Notes under the pieces: model-generated | Told to the model about the DNA's origin: nothing | Databases searched by the model: none | What the model saw: the letters and a program-made list of their open reading frames with translations, nothing else | In this document: positions 4,780-55,490 of the stretch, one piece after another | Layout: each line of letters begins with the position of its first letter | How positions within the stretch are numbered: position 1 is the first letter of the stretch | Position numbers and translations under genes: made by a program | Source of the DNA: Rhina ancylostomus | Taxonomy: Eukaryota | Length of the DNA: 64,000 nucleotides | Reading direction: 5' to 3' | Assembly (NCBI GenBank): GCA_030265395.1 | Contig: JARFYF010000112.1 | Coordinates: 62,236,894-62,300,893 of the forward strand

Positions 4780-5035
4780 ATTTGGAACTAGCAGCAGGAT
4801 GATTGATGAATATAATATTGATTGCATTCGTAAGCATGAAAATACAGAAGGATCTTAGCGTACAATTGGATGAAATGTATAACATTAATGTGCAGGTACA
4901 GCAAGCAAGTAGGAAGGTAAGTGGTAACTTTTCCTCTGCAAGAGAGATGGGAGTACAAGAGCATACCGAGAGTACTGTGCACAATTTTGGCCTCTGTACC
5001 TAGGAAAAGATACACTTAGCTTGGAAACATTACAA
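4780..5035 (+). mobile_element. Degraded CR1-like RT C-terminal fragment
   Basis: IQKDLSVQLDEMYNINVQVQQASRKVSG resembles VQRDLGVLVQGTRKVSHQVGLVVRKGNA of the copy at 33836-34081. Confidence 0.6.
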
Positions 5036-6236
5036 TTCTGGGTGATACTGTGTGCTGGCATGTTATGCACACAAGACCATGAAGCAAAATCATTAACTTC
5101 AGGGTATGTGTGGTAAATCCAAAACAAGTTGTTTGCTGCAGCAATTGTTAAGGGACCTACACCATAGTTTTTTAGGCAGCAGCTTGATTGTTACACTCCC
5201 ATTGTGAAATAACAATATTTGTGTCACTGCATGAAAGGAACCATGTTGTTCTTTCTGCAGAAAAGTATCGCAATGTTCTGAATATAGAATAGATATAGAT
5301 TATTAGACAGACTAAATAGAAAAAAACATTCTTAATGGTGCACTATTAGAAGTATTCTCTACTGAATATCTGATTCTGCAGCTAGAACAAAATTCCATCT
5401 TTCCTATTGCAAGTAAATACAAGGTAATTGTTATTAGACAGTATTGACGAAGGTCACAACTGACTTCGTCTTCAGGCTACAGGTCACTGCAGTAGATTTC
5501 TACTCTGAATGTGATTGATAAGTTGACAAAAAGATTACAACCACAGTTTCTATGGCAATTGCCAGCTTTTATTCAAAAACATAAGGAACCTTAAGCAATA
5601 ATGAAATGGAATTGCATGTGGACATTTTTTTATATCTTAAGGGCCATTTGATACATTTTTTTTATCAAGGATAGCAAATTGATCTTTCATCCAACCTGTC
5701 TATTTGACAATATTTTTAGGGGTAAAAGATTAAATCTTCTGGGAAACAATCCATGGTAAAACTCAGAAGGGCATTGAAATAACTATGTTTCCCTTTGAAC
5801 ATTTTGGTTATTATTACAAAGGAGAGGTGGCAAAAAAGTTTTTCGGCTAGAGGCGATATTTGGAGGTGGGAGACTGTGACAAGGCAATCAGGAATTCATC
5901 CAGCTATAGCTGGAAACTTGAGGCACATTCCATCTGCTTCTGGTATGTGGTATCCAATAGACACTATGTTACACTCTGTTCAGAAATTGTTGTCAGTCTG
6001 CTCACCAAATTGGAAAACAAAACTACAAAGAGGAAATTAGAAGAATCTAACTAGATAAAACACACAAGCTAGTACGGTAGTGTAGCGGTTAGTGTAACGC
6101 TATTACAGCGCCAGCGNNNNNNNNNNNNNNNNNNNNNNNNNNNNNNNNNNNNNNNNNNNNNNNNNNNNNNNNNNNNNNNNNNNNNNNNNNNNNNNNNNNN
6201 NNNNNNNNNNNNNNNNAACTAGATAAAACACAAAAG

Positions 6237-6536
6237 CTAGTACGGTAGTGTAGCGGTTAGTGTAACGCTATTACAGCGCCAGCGACCCAGGTTCAATTCC
6301 CGCTGCTGTCTGTAAGAAGTTTGTGCGTTCTCTCCGTGTCTGCATGGGTTTCCTCCGGGTGCTCTGGTTTCCTCCCACGTTCCAAAGATATACGGGTTAG
6401 GAAGTTGTGGGCATGCTATGTTGGCGCCGGAAGTGTGGCAACACTTGCAGGCTACCCCCAGAACACTCTACGCAAAGATGTATTTCACTTTGCGTTTCGA
6501 TGTACATGTGACTAATAGAGATCTTAGCTTATCTTA
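6237..6536 (+). mobile_element. Near-complete tRNA-derived V-SINE (HE1-like) with Rex1-type tail
   Basis: A-box-like ggtagtgtagcggttag, B-box ggttcaattccc, V-domain tgggtttcctccgggtgctctggtttcctcccac, tail gtacatgtgactaat...cttatctta. Confidence 0.9.
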
Positions 6537-7889
6537 AATTAGAATGTTTTTATTCAACAACTATTTTTGAATCACAAAAGTATTTTTCAAAAATGATATA
6601 TTGTTTTTATCCATGTTTATTTATCCTAAAGTTCTAAAATTATTCCAAAATTTAGGAAGAATTGTATTGCTTGTGCTGTATAGTTGCTGAGAGGCAACAG
6701 CTCCCTAATCTGCTTGGTTATTTACCCAAGTCACTTTATTTCTTCTGTGAATCTGCTTATGGCATTCACATATTGTCCTCTGCAGTGGAAAGTTCCCAAC
6801 ACACTAACGCCTGCGGTTTCTGTTTCACCACTGCACAGATTAAATTTAAAATCAGCAGCATCATCTGAGAATAAATTAGAATAGGCACTTTGGTGATTCT
6901 TTTAAATACCTTAAGGGCAAAATGAGGTTAGAGAATATCAGCTTCTCCAACAGCAAAGAATTTAAAAGTGACCTGACATAATTACTTATTCAGTTAATGG
7001 ATTTTGAAAAGTAAAAAAAAATGTGTACAGCCTTAACGTAAGGCAAGGTCTGGACTTTAAACTTTACGAGTGACAGAGATTTGTAAAATGTATTAAAGAA
7101 AGAACCATTGAGGAAAGAGAATTATAGAAATACTCCAGGGGTAAAATAAGTGAAAATACTGGGGAAAAAAAAGACACCAAAGTAACGAATCAAAACAAGT
7201 TCCATGATTTTAAAAAAATCAAATTACAAAGCAAGCAAGAAAAAAAGTGGTTTTGGAACTCTACGTTCAAAATGCAGACAAAGAAACAGAGAAAGGAGAC
7301 CGATGTGGATGGAATTTTATTTTTAAATAGAATAAGTGAAATGTGAATTGCCACTTAAATTGGAATATAAATGTTAATCTTCTGCTTTAAGATAAGGCAG
7401 AGTACTGACAACAAGAAGGCCAATTATTACCTTGGTGTCAGATTGGTAACCTTGCTCTGTGGCACATTCAGGTGGCATGAAATTGCTTCAAATTTATTTT
7501 ACAACCTTTAGCATACTTCTTGTTTACCAATATTCATGCAGAGCAGAATTTCGATTTCCACTTTTGGCTCCTCCATTTAATTTTCAGTTCATATTTCTTG
7601 ACACTTCCATGTTTTGTAACGTAGCTATCCATGACATGTACAATTTTTTGAGACCCATATTCAAAAAAAACTCTTGAAGCCCAAACAAATAATCACTTGT
7701 AGTTCAGAATCTCAAATGGTTATTCAAATGGTACTGAGTAAAATAACCCTTGCAGCCAGGTTTTCTGCAGGCCCAAGTTGATCAAGCTTGGCTTCCATTG
7801 TTGTTGAATGTCCATCTGTGAGATGAAGTCTCCTTCAAGAAGACTGCTTCTTATCCTTATGAACTTCTTTTTTGATCGGATCAACAGAG

Positions 7890-8170
7890 TACAATAACAT
7901 AACGGTTAAGCTACTGGACTGGCAGCCAGAGGTCAGGACCCTCAATCTAGAAATCCACTATTGTAAGTGGGAAAGTTATACTCAATGAACAATATTAATC
8001 TGGAATTTAAAAAAACAAAACTTCCAGTGACAAAAAGTCAAAACTAATGGATTGTTGTAAAAACCCACCTGATACAATAATGTCATTTGGAGAATGAAAT
8101 CTGCCATCCTTAGTCAGATCTAGATACAACTGCAAATCCACCCATGCCCATAACTGCCTCTTCAGCCTTG
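7890..8170 (+). mobile_element. Old elasmobranch SINE (second family)
   Basis: ggattgttgtaaaaacccac...aatgtcatttggagaatgaaatctgccatcctta core; related minus copy near 43800-44100. Confidence 0.55.
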
Positions 8171-22819: not shown

Positions 22820-23890
22820 TTAGAATCAGAATCAGATTTATTATCACTGACTTATATGATGTAAAATTTATTGGTATGCAGCAACAGTATGGTGCAAAGG
22901 CATAAAAATTACAATAAATTACAAAAATGATACAAATAATGTGGTAGTGTTCATGGACCATTCAGAAATCTGATGGCAGAGGGGAAGAAATCAATGAGTG
23001 TGGGTCTTCAGGCTCCCGTACCTCCTCCCCGATGGTAGTAACAAGAATAGGGCATGTCCCAGATGGCAATGGTTCTTTAATGATGGTTGCAGCCTTCTTG
23101 AGGCACCGCATCTTGATGATGTCCTCAATGGCGGTGAGAGTTGTACCCATGATGTAGCTGGCTGAGTCTACAACTCTCTGCAGCCTCTTGTGATCCTGTG
23201 CATTAAAGCATCCAAACCACGCTGTGATGCAACCAATCAGAATGCTCTCCACCGTGCACCTATGGAAATTTGTAAGAGTCTTTGGTGAATCTCCTCAAAC
23301 TCCTAATGAAGTAGAGCCACTTGTGTGTCTTCTTCATGATTGCATCACTGTGTTGAGCTGAGGCTGGATCCTCTGAGATGTTGATGCCCAGGAATTTGAA
23401 GCTGCTCACCCTTTCCACCACTGATCCTTCAATGAGGACTGGTGTGTGGTCTCCCGACTTCCCTTTCCTGAATTCTACAATCAATTCCTTGGTCTTGCTG
23501 ACGTTGAGTGTGAGGTTGTCATTGCGACACCACTCAAACAGCCAAACTATCCCACTCCTGTACTCTATTTAAGATTCTACAAACAACAATGATGTCATCT
23601 GCAAATCTATAGATGGATTTTGAGCTGTACTTAGCCACACAGTCATGAGTGTAAGAGAGTAGTGCAGTGGGCTCCGCTTGTCTCCTTGATGTGCACCTGT
23701 GTTGATTGTCAGCGAGGAGAAGATATTATTACTGATCCACACTGATTGGTCTCCCGATAAGGAAGCCGAGGAACCAGTTGCAGAGGGAGGTACAGAGGCC
23801 CAGGTTTTGAAGCTTGGTGATTAGTACTGAGGGGGCAATGATGTTGAACACCAAGCTGTAATTGATAAATAGCAGCCTTATGTAAACTGA
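22820..23890 (-). mobile_element. Rex1/Babar-like LINE 3' ~1.07 kb
   Basis: ITKLQNLGLCTSLCNWFLGFLIGRP, VERVSSFKFLGINISED, ESILIGCITAWFG...KRLQRVV; (tctgat)n tail. Confidence 0.9.
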
Positions 23891-26800: not shown

Positions 26801-27389
26801 GCTAATGCTTAGTGGAGGCAAGAAATATTGAGCTGGATCTTGCTTGACTCCGTGTTCTGCCTCCACTGTGGCCGTACTAACTATAGAAGAAAATGAGCTA
26901 CAGAACATGCTTCTGCAGCCATCCAGCAAAGCAGAATGGTCCTTGATCAGCAAAAACGCCTTACATGGTGGATCTTGCGGACCCATCCCCAGCCTGCTCT
27001 GATGGGCTCTTGATGGCTCAAGCTGTCTAAGGTCCTTAAATGTAACCAGCAACAAAGTCACAGAGTTGTACAGCACAGAAACAGGCCCTTTGGCCCACCT
27101 TGTCCATGCCATCCATTTTACCAATCAACACTAATCCCAATGAATCTACAATAGGTTTGTAGCCTTCCATGGTTGACAATTTACAAAGAGTTGAAATAAA
27201 TTTAGATAAGTAAAAGTATATTATTTTTACCCTTTTTAAAATATAACTGTTTTAAATTTAATGACCTGTGCAATACGGTTGGAAACTGAGGTACAGATCT
27301 GTCATTATCTAACCAAACAAGTTCAATGTACTGAATGGCTTTCTCAGGTCCTTGAATGACAAATGGGGAAAACTCTCTGCTAGTTGAAT

Positions 27390-28498
27390 CATATCTAGCA
27401 CAAAGGATGATGGTTGTGGTGGTTGAGTGGAAGGAGTACATCTCTGTACTCCTTCACAATCATCTCAGTCACAGGATATCTCTGCAGGAGTTCTTCAGGG
27501 AGGTGTCCTAGGTCCAACCGTCTTCAGCTGCTTCATCAATGACCTTCCGTCAGTCATAAGGCCAGAAGTAGGGATGTTTACTGATGAATGCACAATGTTC
27601 AGCACCATTTGTGACTCTTCAAATAATGAAGCAGTGCACAACCAAATGCATCGAGACCTAGACCATATCCAGGCCTGTGCTGATAGGTGGCAAGTAACAT
27701 TCACACCACACAAATGCCAGGCAATGATGATATCCAACAAGAGAAAGTCCAGTTANNNNNNNNNNNNNNNNNNNNNNNNNNNNNNNNNNNNNNNNNNNNN
27801 NNNNNNNNNNNNNNNNNNNNNNNNNNNNNNNNNNNNNNNNNNNNNNNNNNNNNNNTGATATCCAACAAGAGAAAGTCCAGTTATAACCCGCTTCATTGTA
27901 TGGCATTACCATCATTGATTGCCCCATTATCAATTTCATGTATGTTACCATTGACCAGAAACTGAACTGGAGTAGCCATATACACAATGTGGCTATAAGA
28001 GCAGGCCAGAGACAAGGAAACCTGTAGCAAGTAACTCACCTCAACTCACTGAAGCCTGTCCACTGTCTACATGGCTCAAGCATGGAGTGTGATGGAATAC
28101 TCTCCACTTGTCTGGATGAGTGCAGCTTCAACAGTACTCAAGAAGCTCCACACCATATAGGACATAGCAGCCTGTTTGATAGGCACCCCATCCACAACCA
28201 TTCACTCACTCCAGCACCGATGCAGACCAGCTGCAGTTGCTGCAACTACAGGATGCACTGCAGCAACTCATCAAGACTCCTTAGACAGCACCGTCCAAAC
28301 CCACAACCTCCACCAGCTAGAAGAACAAGGGCTGAAAAAGCAGGGAAATATTACCACCTGGAAGTTACCCTCTGAGCCACACACCATCCCGACTTGGAAA
28401 TACATTGCAGTTATTTCACTGTCTTTGGGTCAACATCCTGGAACTTCCTCCCTTACAGCACTATGGGCATACCCACAGCTTAAGGACAGCAACAGTTC
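27390..28498 (+). mobile_element. CR1/L2-group LINE RT and C-terminus; its tail lies at 29568-29633
   Basis: QDISAGVLQGGVLGPTVFSCFINDLPSVIRPEVGMFTDECTMF...WQVTFTPHKCQAM; same family on minus at 55070-55490. Confidence 0.85.
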
Positions 28499-28875
28499 AG
28501 AATCAGGCTTATTATCACTGACATATGTCGTGAAATTTGTTGTTTTGTGGCAGCAGTACAGTGCAAGACATAAAGACATAAAATTACTATACGTTACGAA
28601 AATAAGTAAATAGTGCAAAAGAGGAATAATGAGGTAGTGTTCATGGGTTCATAGACCGTTCAGAAATCTGATTGCGGAGGGGAAGAAGCTGTTCTAGAAG
28701 TATTGAGTGTGCGTCTTCAGGCTCCTGTACCTCCTCCCCGATGGTAGTAACGTGAAGAGGGCATGTCCCAGGTGGTGAGGGTCCTTAATAATGGATGTTG
28801 CCTTCTTGAGGCACCGCCTCTTGAAGATGTCCTTGATGGTGGGGAGGGTTGTGCCCGTGATGGAGCTGGCTGAGT
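28496..28875 (-). mobile_element. Nested Rex1-like LINE 3' end
   Basis: Collinear with 22820-23170 (tcagaatcag..ttattatcactga, ttcagaaatctgat, ctcctccccgatggtagtaac). Confidence 0.85.
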
Positions 28876-29029
28876 NNNNNNNNNNNNNNNNNNNNNNNNN
28901 NNNNNNNNNNNNNNNNNNNNNNNNNNNNNNNNNNNNNNNNNNNNNNNNNNNNNNNNNNNNNNNNNNNNNNNNNNNNNNNNNNNNNNNNNNNNNNNNNNNN
29001 NNNNNNNNNNNNNNNNNNNNNNNNNNNNN

Positions 29030-29302
29030 ACCGCAAGAGCTCGGTGAGGAAGGACGACAGTCTAGGGTGCTTCTGCCACCGGCGGGGGAGGGGCGGGGTC
29101 ACCTGAGGAAGCCCCGCAAATATTGTAAATTCGGGATCGGGGTATCCCCCCAGGAAGCCACACGTGTGGCATCAGTGCTGTGTCTTTATATATAAGAAGT
29201 AACGCTATGAACAGAACTGTACATGAATGTAAAGGTTTGAACTGTTTTATTATTGTATATAGTTTCTTTTATTGTGAATAAAGTTTATTTTGTTTAAAAA
29301 AA
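29030..29302 (+). mobile_element. Tx1-like LINE 3' end, copy A
   Basis: ARAR*GRTTV* (decayed Tx1 ORF2 terminus of type ..WGKTTV*), 3' UTR, aataaagtttattttg and poly-A. Confidence 0.65.
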
Positions 29303-29306
29303 AATT

Positions 29307-29569
29307 AGGACTACTGATTAGGGTTCTTCTGCCACTGGTGAGGGAGGGACGGGGTCAGGCGAGGAAGCCCCTTAAATATTGTAAATATGAGATTGGGGTA
29401 GCACCCCAGAGAGCCACGCGAGTGGCTTTGGTGCTGTGTTTTATCGATATATAAAAAGGTAACACTAATGATTGATTCGTATATGAATGTAACAGTTTGC
29501 TCTGTTTTATTATTTTATATAGTTTGTTTTTTTTATGATGAATAAAGTTTATTTTGGAATAATAAAAAA
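29307..29569 (+). mobile_element. Tx1-like LINE 3' end, copy B, flanked by AATTAGG
   Basis: Aligns to copy A along its length; aattagg at 29303-29309 and 29568-29574. Confidence 0.65.
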
Positions 29570-29634
29570 TTAGGGATGGGCAATTAAATGTTGGCTCAGC
29601 CTGCCAAGCGCACATCCCTTGAATGAATAAAAAA
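29568..29634 (+). mobile_element. Displaced 3' tail of the 27390-28498 LINE
   Basis: aattagggatgggcaattaaatgttggctcagcctgccaagcgcacatcccttgaatgaataaaaaa; the minus copy at 55070-55130 shows this tail directly follows the ORF end. Confidence 0.75.
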
Positions 29635-30071
29635 TGTCTTTAACCCTGAAAACAAATGACAGAATAGATCTTACCAAAACTGAAGATTTGAAGTAATTTA
29701 AAAAGGTAAATCCCCAATACTTTTGTTGATACCTGAGTTATGAGTCGTAACACTGAAATTTAATTTTAACACTGAATTCCTTCAACCAAATAATAGCCAA
29801 CACTTTAAAACAAAAAAAGAGGTAGAACTGTGCTGGTAAAAATCTTAAGTTCAATCCTGAGACAACTGGTTGTGTAGTTCTTTTTGATGGATGAGCTAAG
29901 ATGGTCAAGTGACCTTCCTCATCTATATTTACCTTGTGAAATAAAGAAATAACAAACAGTTCAGCAATCTAGAAGGAGCTGGAATTAAACATGATGTTCT
30001 GCAGAATTCAACTGTTGCCACTGAGCTTTTGTCCGTTTCCAGCTGAGCAAGTCAACTTAAATAAATGAAAA

Positions 30072-30279: not shown

Positions 30280-30872
30280 GGATATATTTCTTGTTACAGC
30301 TGTACAAGGTGTTTGTCTACAAGGGGCTACATCTGGAGCTGTACAAGGTGTTTGTCTACAAGGGGCTACATCTGGAGTACAGCATGCAGATCTCGTCATC
30401 CTGCTTTGGGAAGGATGTCATTAAGCTGGAAAGGGTGCAAAAAAGATTTCCAAAAATGTTACCGGGACTGAAAGAGTTGAGTTATAAGGAGAAGCTGGAT
30501 AAGCTAAGACTTTTTCCCCTGGAGTATAGGAGGCTGAGGGACGACTTTATTGAGGTTTATAAAATCATGAGCATAGATAAGGTGAATAGCCACAGAGTTT
30601 TCCCCGGGGTCGGAAAATCCAAAACTAGAGGGAACAGGTTTAAAGTGCGAAGGGAATGATTTAAAAGGGACCTGAGGGGCAACAGAGAGTGGAATAAGCT
30701 ACCAATGAAGTGTTAGTGGTGCATACATTATGATATTTAAAAGACACGGATAGGAAATATTTAGAGGGAATGGGCTAAATGCAGGCAAATAGGACTTCTT
30801 TAGTTGGGCAACTTGGTCAGCATGGATGAATTGAGCTGAAGGGTCTGTTTCCATCCTGTATAGCTCTGTGAC
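30280..30872 (+). mobile_element. CR1/HER1-like LINE 3' region with internal 39-bp tandem duplication
   Basis: LQLYK...HLEYSMQ...KDVIKLERVQKRF...LSYKEKLDKLRLFPLEYRRLRDDFIEVYKIM...KTRGNRFKV. Confidence 0.9.
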
Positions 30873-38884: not shown

Positions 38885-39135
38885 GTCATTTATAGTGCGG
38901 GCATTGCTAATAATATCAGGATGTATTGTTTATTTCCTAATTGTCCTTGAAGGTGGTAGTGAGCCACCACCTTCTTGAATCACCAGTGTAAGTACTTCCA
39001 TGATGCTATAGATAGGGAGTTCCAGGATTTAGAACCAGTGCAAATTAAAGGGCAGCAAATCAGGGTTGCTTGGGGCTTGGAGGAAGATGGGAATTCCTTT
39101 GCACTTGCTGCCCTTGTCCTTCTGAGTGGTAGAAA
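38885..39135 (-). mobile_element. 3' end of the 27390-family LINE
   Basis: cctaattgtccttgaaggtggtagtgagccaccaccttcttgaa...gggagttccaggattt. Confidence 0.65.
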
Positions 39136-43804: not shown

Positions 43805-44105
43805 TTTTTCATTTCTTCAGGAGGTGTGGACTTCACTGGAAAGTGCAATATTTATTGTCCATCCCTAATTACCCTGAACTGAGCCGGCAATTTGGAGTCA
43901 ACCATATTGCTGTGCGTCTGGATATTGACCAGACTGGGTAAGGGTAACAAATTGGATTTTCAGAACAATCCAATAGTTTCATGGTTACCAATATTGCAAC
44001 TTGCTTCTAATTCAAGATATGCTTAAGTATTTGATTCAGATTCACGCTTTTGGATTAATGGTCCTGACCACTAACTGCTGGCCCAGTAGCAACCATTATC
44101 TTACC
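43805..44105 (-). mobile_element. Old SINE (second family) sharing the AATTAGGG-type tail
   Basis: atttattgtccatccctaattaccctgaactgag...gagtcaaccatattgctgtgcgtctgga. Confidence 0.6.
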
Positions 44106-55069: not shown

Positions 55070-55490
55070 CAGCATTTAGTTGCTTATCCCTAGTTGCCTG
55101 TGAGTAGGCACTAGTGAGCTGCCTTCTTGAACTGCTGCAATCCTTCAGGTGTGGGGAAACCAACAATGCTGCTAGGGAGGGAGTGCTAGGATTTTGGCCC
55201 AGTATCGGTGAAAGAACAGCAATATATTTCCAGATCACGATGGTGTGTGGCTCGGAGGGCAATGTCACAATGGTGGTGTTCCCATGTTTTTGCTGCCCTT
55301 TTCCTTCTTGCTGAAAGAGGTCATGGGTTTGGAAGGGGCTGTCTAAGGAGTCTGGGTGAGTTGCTGCAGTACACCCTGAAGATGGTACGAGCTGCTGCGA
55401 CTGTGGTGGAGTGAGATAATGGCGGTGGATGGGATGCCTCTCAAGAGGGCTGCTATGCCCTTATGCTGTCAAGCTTCTTGAGTGTTGTTG
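55070..55490 (-). mobile_element. 3' end of the 27390-family LINE
   Basis: Minus LPSEPHTIVIWKYIAV matches LPSEPHTIPTWKYIAV in ORF 28176-28613. Confidence 0.85.

Follow-up and report, generated by a model that had tools for sequence, protein, structure and literature searches.

Two Tx1-type LINE copies stacked in the tail of another LINE of Rhina ancylostomus: likely re-use of a target duplicate

Several described retroelements resemble the arrangement reported here. Crocodilian Tx1-Mar families carry 5' heads of the U1/U2 type, and for Tx1-8_Crp as well as Tx1-4_AMi a preferred site lies within an LTR retrotransposon, according to the sections of Kojima (2015; PMC4494074) used here. The same sections describe SINEU-3 tandems that sandwich a duplicate of the target, interpreted as sequential insertion, take more than 20% of flanks as the criterion for target specificity, and are our second-hand source for Keno as a Tx1 element specific for U2 snRNA. 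For R1 arrays in Drosophila 28S rDNA, an excerpt of Stage and Eickbush (2009; PMC2718515) proposes that new copies insert in the duplicate that adjoins a resident copy's 5' end. Tail-to-internal dimers of jockey and DMRT1B, with distinct 5' truncations and double insertion at one site, are described in an excerpt of McGurk and Barbash (2018; PMC5932611), together with P-element dimers that arise at better-matching sites.

The family analysed here was met in a stretch of 64,000 nucleotides (the window) from contig JARFYF010000112.1 of R. ancylostomus. Like Tx1-Mar, Keno-related elements and SINEU, it has snRNA-derived heads, a preferred site in another repeat and tandems around a target duplicate; unlike them, its preference is weak (2/178 flanks at an LTR-like site, <20%) and its stacks lie at unrelated sequences. 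As in Keno, a U2 5' piece of ~40 nt is joined to the 5' end of the element, whereas none of the 178 3' flanks sampled continues as U2. As in R1 arrays, a target duplicate separates the copies and growth on the 5' side is proposed, but R1 inserts strictly at its specific site and its duplicate has a constant length of 14 bp, whereas duplicates here measure 7-17 nt and differ from stack to stack. Two insertions at one site with distinct 5' truncations are shared with jockey and DMRT1B, which were described in an insect from population data, whereas the present case concerns a vertebrate Tx1 element with mixed subfamilies and a visible 5'-ward order. Listings of the open-licence literature showed no paper about the targeting of Tx1 elements in cartilaginous fishes, and none on repeated insertion at one site.

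Two insertions in the tail of a host LINE

Read from the left, the locus begins with a host LINE and an antisense LINE fragment; these are followed by a 154-N gap, then by copy A and copy B, each with AATTAGG behind it, and finally by the host tail (Table 1). As the preliminary description of this DNA had noticed, two diverged 3' ends each finish with poly-A followed by TTAGG. AATTAGG stands directly behind an A-rich tail at 29303-29309 and again at 29568-29574, and brackets copy B as a target duplicate. The second site continues as host tail up to 29634, in an alignment with two intact host tails (L084 and L090) that starts at their AATTAGG/AACTAGG position. Uninterrupted versions of the site on the minus strand are present as that description had stated, although it had placed both one base off. 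The AGG of the left AATTAGG consists of bases of the element itself at the truncation point of B. Other copies read GGGGAAGG|ACTAC at this point, and AGG is therefore a 5' microhomology inside the duplication, belonging to both target and element.

Table 1. Features of the stacked locus and of related empty sites, in window coordinates
Feature	Position	Strand	Remark
Host LINE, 3' part of ORF2, decayed	27350..28502	+	RVT_1 35.8 bits; 5' limit approximate
Reverse transcriptase domain of host LINE	27457-27753	+	Pfam RVT_1
100-N gap within host LINE	27756-27855		
3' end of unrelated LINE, inserted in host	28503..28875, continues into gap	-	75% match to copy at 22829-23167
Assembly gap, 154 N	28876..29029		
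Copy A, 3' end of Tx1-type LINE, subfamily A	29030..29304	+	93% to subfamily A consensus
Copy A, ORF2 stop	29063-29065	+	
Copy A, AATAAA	29277-29282	+	
Copy A, poly-A	29296-29304	+	
Middle target copy AATTAGG	29303..29309	+	AGG also microhomology to 5' end of B
Copy B, 5'-truncated, same family, subfamily B	~29307..29569	+	93% to subfamily B consensus
Copy B, ORF2 stop	29319-29321	+	
Copy B, AATAAA	29541-29546	+	
Copy B, A-rich tail	to 29569	+	
Right target copy and host LINE 3' tail	29568..29634	+	Aligns to intact host tails L084, L090
Empty decayed paralogous host site	38936..38942	-	LINE-type left side
Empty paralogous site	43864..43870	-	Left side differs; likely SINE with common tail

The host LINE, as judged by its alignment to the intact copy L090, stops ~31 bases short of the AATTAGG site. 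From this layout, the 154-N gap is predicted to contain the 5' ends of both the antisense LINE and copy A, with the ~31 host bases and the left copy of the target between them. Contigs assembled from public runs extend the antisense LINE into the gap, as a continuation of that family only. Pfam returned no match for the C terminus of the host LINE or for the antisense piece; from the appearance of its motifs, the host LINE may belong to the CR1/L2 group, and the antisense LINE is presumably Rex1/Babar-like. The host LINE was not found among the shark SINE-LINE pairs in the part of PMC3747384 used here. A second copy of the host family lies at 55128-55490 on the minus strand of the window, and one of the antisense LINE at 22829-23167. 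Another LINE fragment contains a perfect 39-base tandem duplication (30298-30377). The 28 bases at 27728-27755 and 27856-27883, on either side of the 100-N gap, are identical, which reflects overlapping assembly pieces and no true duplication.

Copies A and B are two independent insertions from two subfamilies of one family. Their alignment is identical in 213 of 273 columns (78%). Consensus sequences built from 29 B-like and 29 A-like genome copies are 89% identical, and the two groups split in a tree with a support of 0.999, being separated at the clustering threshold used (0.16) and merged at 0.165. Copy A matches the consensus of subfamily A at 93% and that of B at 84%; copy B matches B at 93% and A at 83%. 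Outside CpG positions, the two are equally diverged from their consensus (7.5%, 17/227, for A; 7.9%, 17/216, for B; p = 1.0). An internal repeat of the 3' UTR, which the preliminary description had listed with tandem duplication among the alternatives, was rejected, nearly all copies being single-tailed (125 copies in 120 loci). We also rejected a 3' transduction at this locus, where the target duplicate sits between the copies.

That the stack is an assembly artefact or a local tandem duplication is barely credible. The locus does adjoin a gap, the 28-base false duplication flanks the gap at 27756-27855, and no contig from runs X9, X10, X1, X2 and X3 bridges the A-B joint or the 154-N gap, with 28880-29019 uncovered both in the set X9, X10, X1, X2 and in the set X9, X10, X1, X3. 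Against this, A and B come from different subfamilies, their joint sits in gap-free sequence with a proper target duplicate, and stacks of the same build occur elsewhere without any N at their junctions. One contig of run X10 (organism code E) spans 29544-29900 with 20 differing letters and 7 gaps, which indicates that the joint of B tail, host tail and flank is present there too, only ~26 of its letters lying in the tail of B.

The Tx1-type family and its 3' flanks

Long copies, recovered by walking 5'-ward from tails, bore out the earlier naming of these elements as Tx1-like. ORF2 contains Exo_endo_phos_2 (31.7 bits), RVT_1 (95 bits) and zf-RVT (39.4 bits) domains in Pfam searches of L167, L113 and L110, copies that carry the tail of the A/B family or share sequence with it. 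ORF1 of L195 scores above the Pfam cut-off for the first and second RBD_ZCCHC3 domains and for zf-CCHC. Short C-terminal pieces had stayed below cut-off in an initial Pfam scan, Pfam gave no match for the N-terminal endonuclease piece of L181, and searching PDB with the endonuclease piece returned weak matches to L1 (E 0.07). The reverse transcriptase aligns with "Transposon TX1 uncharacterized 149 kDa protein" at 264 bits, the sole clade-naming match among the best 120 listed, vs 151 bits for human L1 ORF2. Its best identities, 53-55% in pairwise comparison, are to unnamed and amphibian proteins.

Full-length elements measure 5.2-5.3 kb and the median copy 437 bases, and the family displays the Tx1-clade traits of a poly-A tail, 5' truncation and target duplications of variable length. 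A U2-derived 5' head is present on the full-length copies L195, L171 and L205. A U1-derived head is found on L167 and L180, which have the same flanks on both sides and thus represent one segmentally duplicated insertion, counted once. As assessed by flank listings and flank-to-flank BLAST, U2 continues in 0/178 3' flanks, and the U2 piece is therefore a head rather than an occupied U2 gene. In its heads and its LTR preference, the family resembles the Tx1-Mar/Keno lineage, as far as sequence comparison goes. Mean divergence of the subfamilies is 3.7% for A (n = 47), 6.0% for B (n = 54), 7.9% for C (n = 9) and 9.4% for D (n = 7). An inverted 5' part or an internal inversion, as in twin priming, was seen in L268, L273, L040, L108 and L195.

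The preliminary description had proposed that the endonuclease targets the tail shared by the host LINE and a SINE, or a TTAGGG-like motif, and had named in advance the survey of 3' flanks that would decide against this. We surveyed tails, flanks and sites in a gap-rich assembly of 2.2 Gb. The flank set comprises 178 flanks (28 B-like, 28 A-like, 34 obtained via protein searches and 88 from ordered lists on contig C1), and leaves out two gapped flanks, the window, and loci selected as pairs or for AATTAGG. These flanks are heterogeneous. None of the 178 begins with TTAGG or CTAGG (95% upper bound 1.7%), none lies in TTAGGG repeats, and the host tail or TTAGGG as the target of the family is refuted. 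Host pieces, tested at any position, were found in 3/178 flanks (L119, L134 and L211). Exact tails number 2,016 on both strands, and a tail followed by AATTAGG occurs six times genome-wide, two of these lying in the window and three of the other four outside a host tail. On the plus strand, among 609 poly-A tails, only the two in the window are followed by AATTAGG. Conversely, 4,013 near-intact host sites are empty, and among 16 sites with an A-rich left side a family tail is found only at the site in the window. Loose ends behind tails in four public runs gave an agreement of only 0.36-0.5.

Site specificity of this Tx1 family, through recognition by its endonuclease of AATTAGGGATGGGCAA (or of a motif resembling TTAGGG) in the shared LINE/SINE tail, is thus very improbable. 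Two insertions in the window and an independent one elsewhere (L063) do share the same nick, many Tx1 families are target-specific as described in the relevant sections of PMC4494074, and the assembly may lack true telomeric arrays. Yet 0/178 flanks is far under the 20% named in those sections, only one of ~4,014 near-intact sites is filled, none of the four other tails followed by AATTAGG lies in a TTAGGG array, and the true hot site of the family, with a far higher occupancy, lies elsewhere. A LINE targeting the telomere motif was likewise rejected, given the lack of TTAGGG-repeat flanks (0/178). L063 belongs to subfamily A and entered a decayed host tail at the nick also used in the window; its score is 55.5 vs 24 +/- 4.6 for the bulk (n = 215). 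The rough chance expectation for such copies is 0.03-0.15, which makes a mild side preference for the host site possible; the host tail may be a slightly favoured side target.

Stacking, nick preference and a hot site in an LTR-like repeat

Stacking is a habit of the A/B family, at unrelated sequences. Exact tails on the same strand 30-450 bases apart form 19 pairs vs 0.39 expected, and a control pattern gave none. In the ordered sample from contig C1, 4/88 tails run into the 5' end of another copy vs 0.004 expected (L205, L213, L218 and L236, the last two being old, divergent relatives). Classes were assigned to the 19 pairs by eye, automated scoring of spacers being too noisy (false tail matches) to confirm them. 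A target duplicate, in each case of a different sequence and in some short or imperfect, is held by 12/19 pairs (L184, L185, L186, L192, L193, L194, L195, L197, L199, L200, which is the locus in the window, L201 and L202). Only an outer duplicate is present in three fusion-like pairs (L188, L196 and L198), and four pairs were left unassigned (L187, L189, L190 and L191). Beyond a purine-rich start, the stack duplicates have no motif in common, and no common code was found among the stacked sites. The fusion-like pairs resemble chimeras made by template switching, two or three copies being fused inside one outer duplicate of the target. L197 (G000:C84:62018582-62021857) consists of several old divergent copies with one 15-base target repeated between them. 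L172 was rejected as a stack, its two long copies being part of a larger duplication.

Among single copies, target duplications of 7-17 nt were detected in 18 of the 92 with both junctions readable (out of 170), vs 9/362 shuffled pairings. The information at their nick is confined to C|AR and amounts to 3.4 bits, partly forced by poly-A, with T at -1 in 2/18. The window nick, GGGC|AATT, agrees with this core. Since 3.4 bits are too little for the re-use of one base among 4 billion, other features of site quality are needed.

The real hot target of the family, used by ~1% of copies, is palindromic and lies in a repeat of ~530 bases that is LTR-like (L263-L289; e.g. L275:1408-1616 and L195:401-455). 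Two adjacent 12-base palindromes make up the site in L275. Three loci gave the lead, and a pattern search then identified 14 tails that share one nick to within a few bases; the GGA-type tail that marks subfamilies B and C is not among them. There are 147 such sites genome-wide at <=1 mismatch, and enrichment is thousands-fold. This site nevertheless accounts for only 2/178 sampled flanks (~1%), below a preference of >20%. Such enrichment indicates that the endonuclease is able to discriminate strongly, and suggests that its specificity is loose and that sites vary widely in quality.

Of 12 filled loci fetched, six have the repeat on both sides, three are 3' transductions ending at the poly-A signal of the repeat itself, and three have no visible left part. 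The first 15 sites comprise 11 that are empty, two with a poly-A junction and an intact right part, one transduction with the element and one orphan transduction. These transductions imply that source copies seated in the LTR were active. In L267, L273, L274, L283 and L285, the poly-A of the element is followed by ~45 bases of the LTR-like site and a second poly-A, L285 being an orphan without element. One stack at this site is topped by a U2-headed full-length start.

Order of insertion and competing explanations

Judged by what the junctions contain, new copies seem to be added to a stack on its 5' side. The clearest case is L166 (= L193; minus-oriented, 4814-8092 of G000:C65:13191300-13200000), a triple stack with four copies of one target and four junctions without N. 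Its two left duplicates include five bases from the 5' end of the first copy and share a T-to-C change that the two right ones do not have, which orders the three insertions from right to left. In both of its right-hand copies, the sequence at the truncation point starts with the continuation of the target in reverse complement. In L169, L199 and L201, the left duplicate likewise includes bases from the 5' end of the downstream copy. Subfamily A, the youngest, is leftmost in 7/7 mixed stacks (the locus in the window, L184, L186, L188, L199, L201 and L202; p = 0.016), and copies of type D occupy a downstream position in L189, L201 and L213. In L201 (p = 0.009) and in L192 (p = 0.049), it is the upstream copy that has diverged less, a comparison in which short upstream copies, chosen by an exact match to a conserved tail, are biased towards being young. 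Subfamily C is upstream of B in 4/4 stacks, contrary to their mean divergence, that of C (7.9%) being higher.

In the window, where the 5' junction of A lies inside the gap and order is read indirectly, B then A is the likely sequence of events. Copy A is old for its subfamily and no more diverged than B, which fits insertions that were nearly simultaneous. We favour, with a probability of about three in four, the reading that two 5'-truncated Tx1-type copies entered at the nick GGGC|AATTAGG, the second likely re-using a duplicate made by the first, with no genome-wide targeting of that sequence. Copy B would have inserted first in the host tail by the established process of target-primed reverse transcription, duplicating AATTAGG, and its 5' end would have been joined through the AGG microhomology. 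The upstream duplicate would keep the original left flank and so might stay the better substrate, which copy A would later enter, pushing the stack 5'-ward. The endonuclease involved likely has a loose preference, with a visible core of C|AR and a broad range of site quality; its best known site is the one in the LTR-like repeat, and good sites are hit again.

The arrangement would fit equally well if A had come first and its poly-A had offered an L1-type nick site (TTT|AAAA), B then entering the right duplicate. Insertion of L1 and Alu into poly-A tails occurs, GTTT|AAAAAAAAA is present at 29293-29304, and the divergences of A and B are equal. The nick core of this family is C|AR rather than TT|AAAA, however (the 2/18 given above), all four stacks with a direction readable from their junctions grew 5'-ward, and none of the mixed stacks has subfamily A on the downstream side of another (7/7), which together make an A-first order quite unlikely. 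A single event, our own suggestion, is also an unlikely account, in which the end of a new cDNA would recreate the primer and be used on a second RNA before ligation. Same-nick stacks would then need no common sequence, second cut or memory of the site, and spacers equal to the target duplicate, left duplicates that contain bases of the first copy, the equal age of A and B and the three fusion-like pairs would all be expected. Such an event predicts no relation between age and position, yet A is leftmost in 7/7 mixed stacks and old copies of type D lie downstream in three stacks (L189, L201, L213); moreover, the T-to-C change in the target of L166 arose between the second and the third insertion.

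The locus in the window is real but likely an incidental double insertion, an ordinary re-landing on an earlier site and not a new site-specific element. A stack at a single site is not evidence for sequence-specific targeting without a genome-wide count of flanks. The family looks like a lineage of Tx1-Mar/Keno type placed between specific and promiscuous insertion, ~99% of its copies lying off the LTR-like site. It should be of some use to specialists, and its stacks make the definition of a re-usable nick testable. We put forward only tentatively, and with rather more doubt than belief, that a family with a 3.4-bit consensus revisits its own nicks 50- to 1,000-fold over chance, across subfamilies that differ in age and always on the 5' side. 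If so, the endonuclease would either read a hidden site code (shape, palindromes or degenerate contacts over a long stretch) or prime anew where an insertion is still unsealed, and the stacks together with the hot LTR-like site would form a training set for the loss and re-targeting of Tx1 specificity.

One composite locus stands apart. At L036:1133-2918 (minus-oriented), a 16-base duplicate surrounds a composite that starts with a Tx1 copy and ends with the tail of a second one; between them lie a gap and unrelated sequence that includes another LINE's 5' part, an arrangement that we regard as a candidate 3' transduction or nested insertion.
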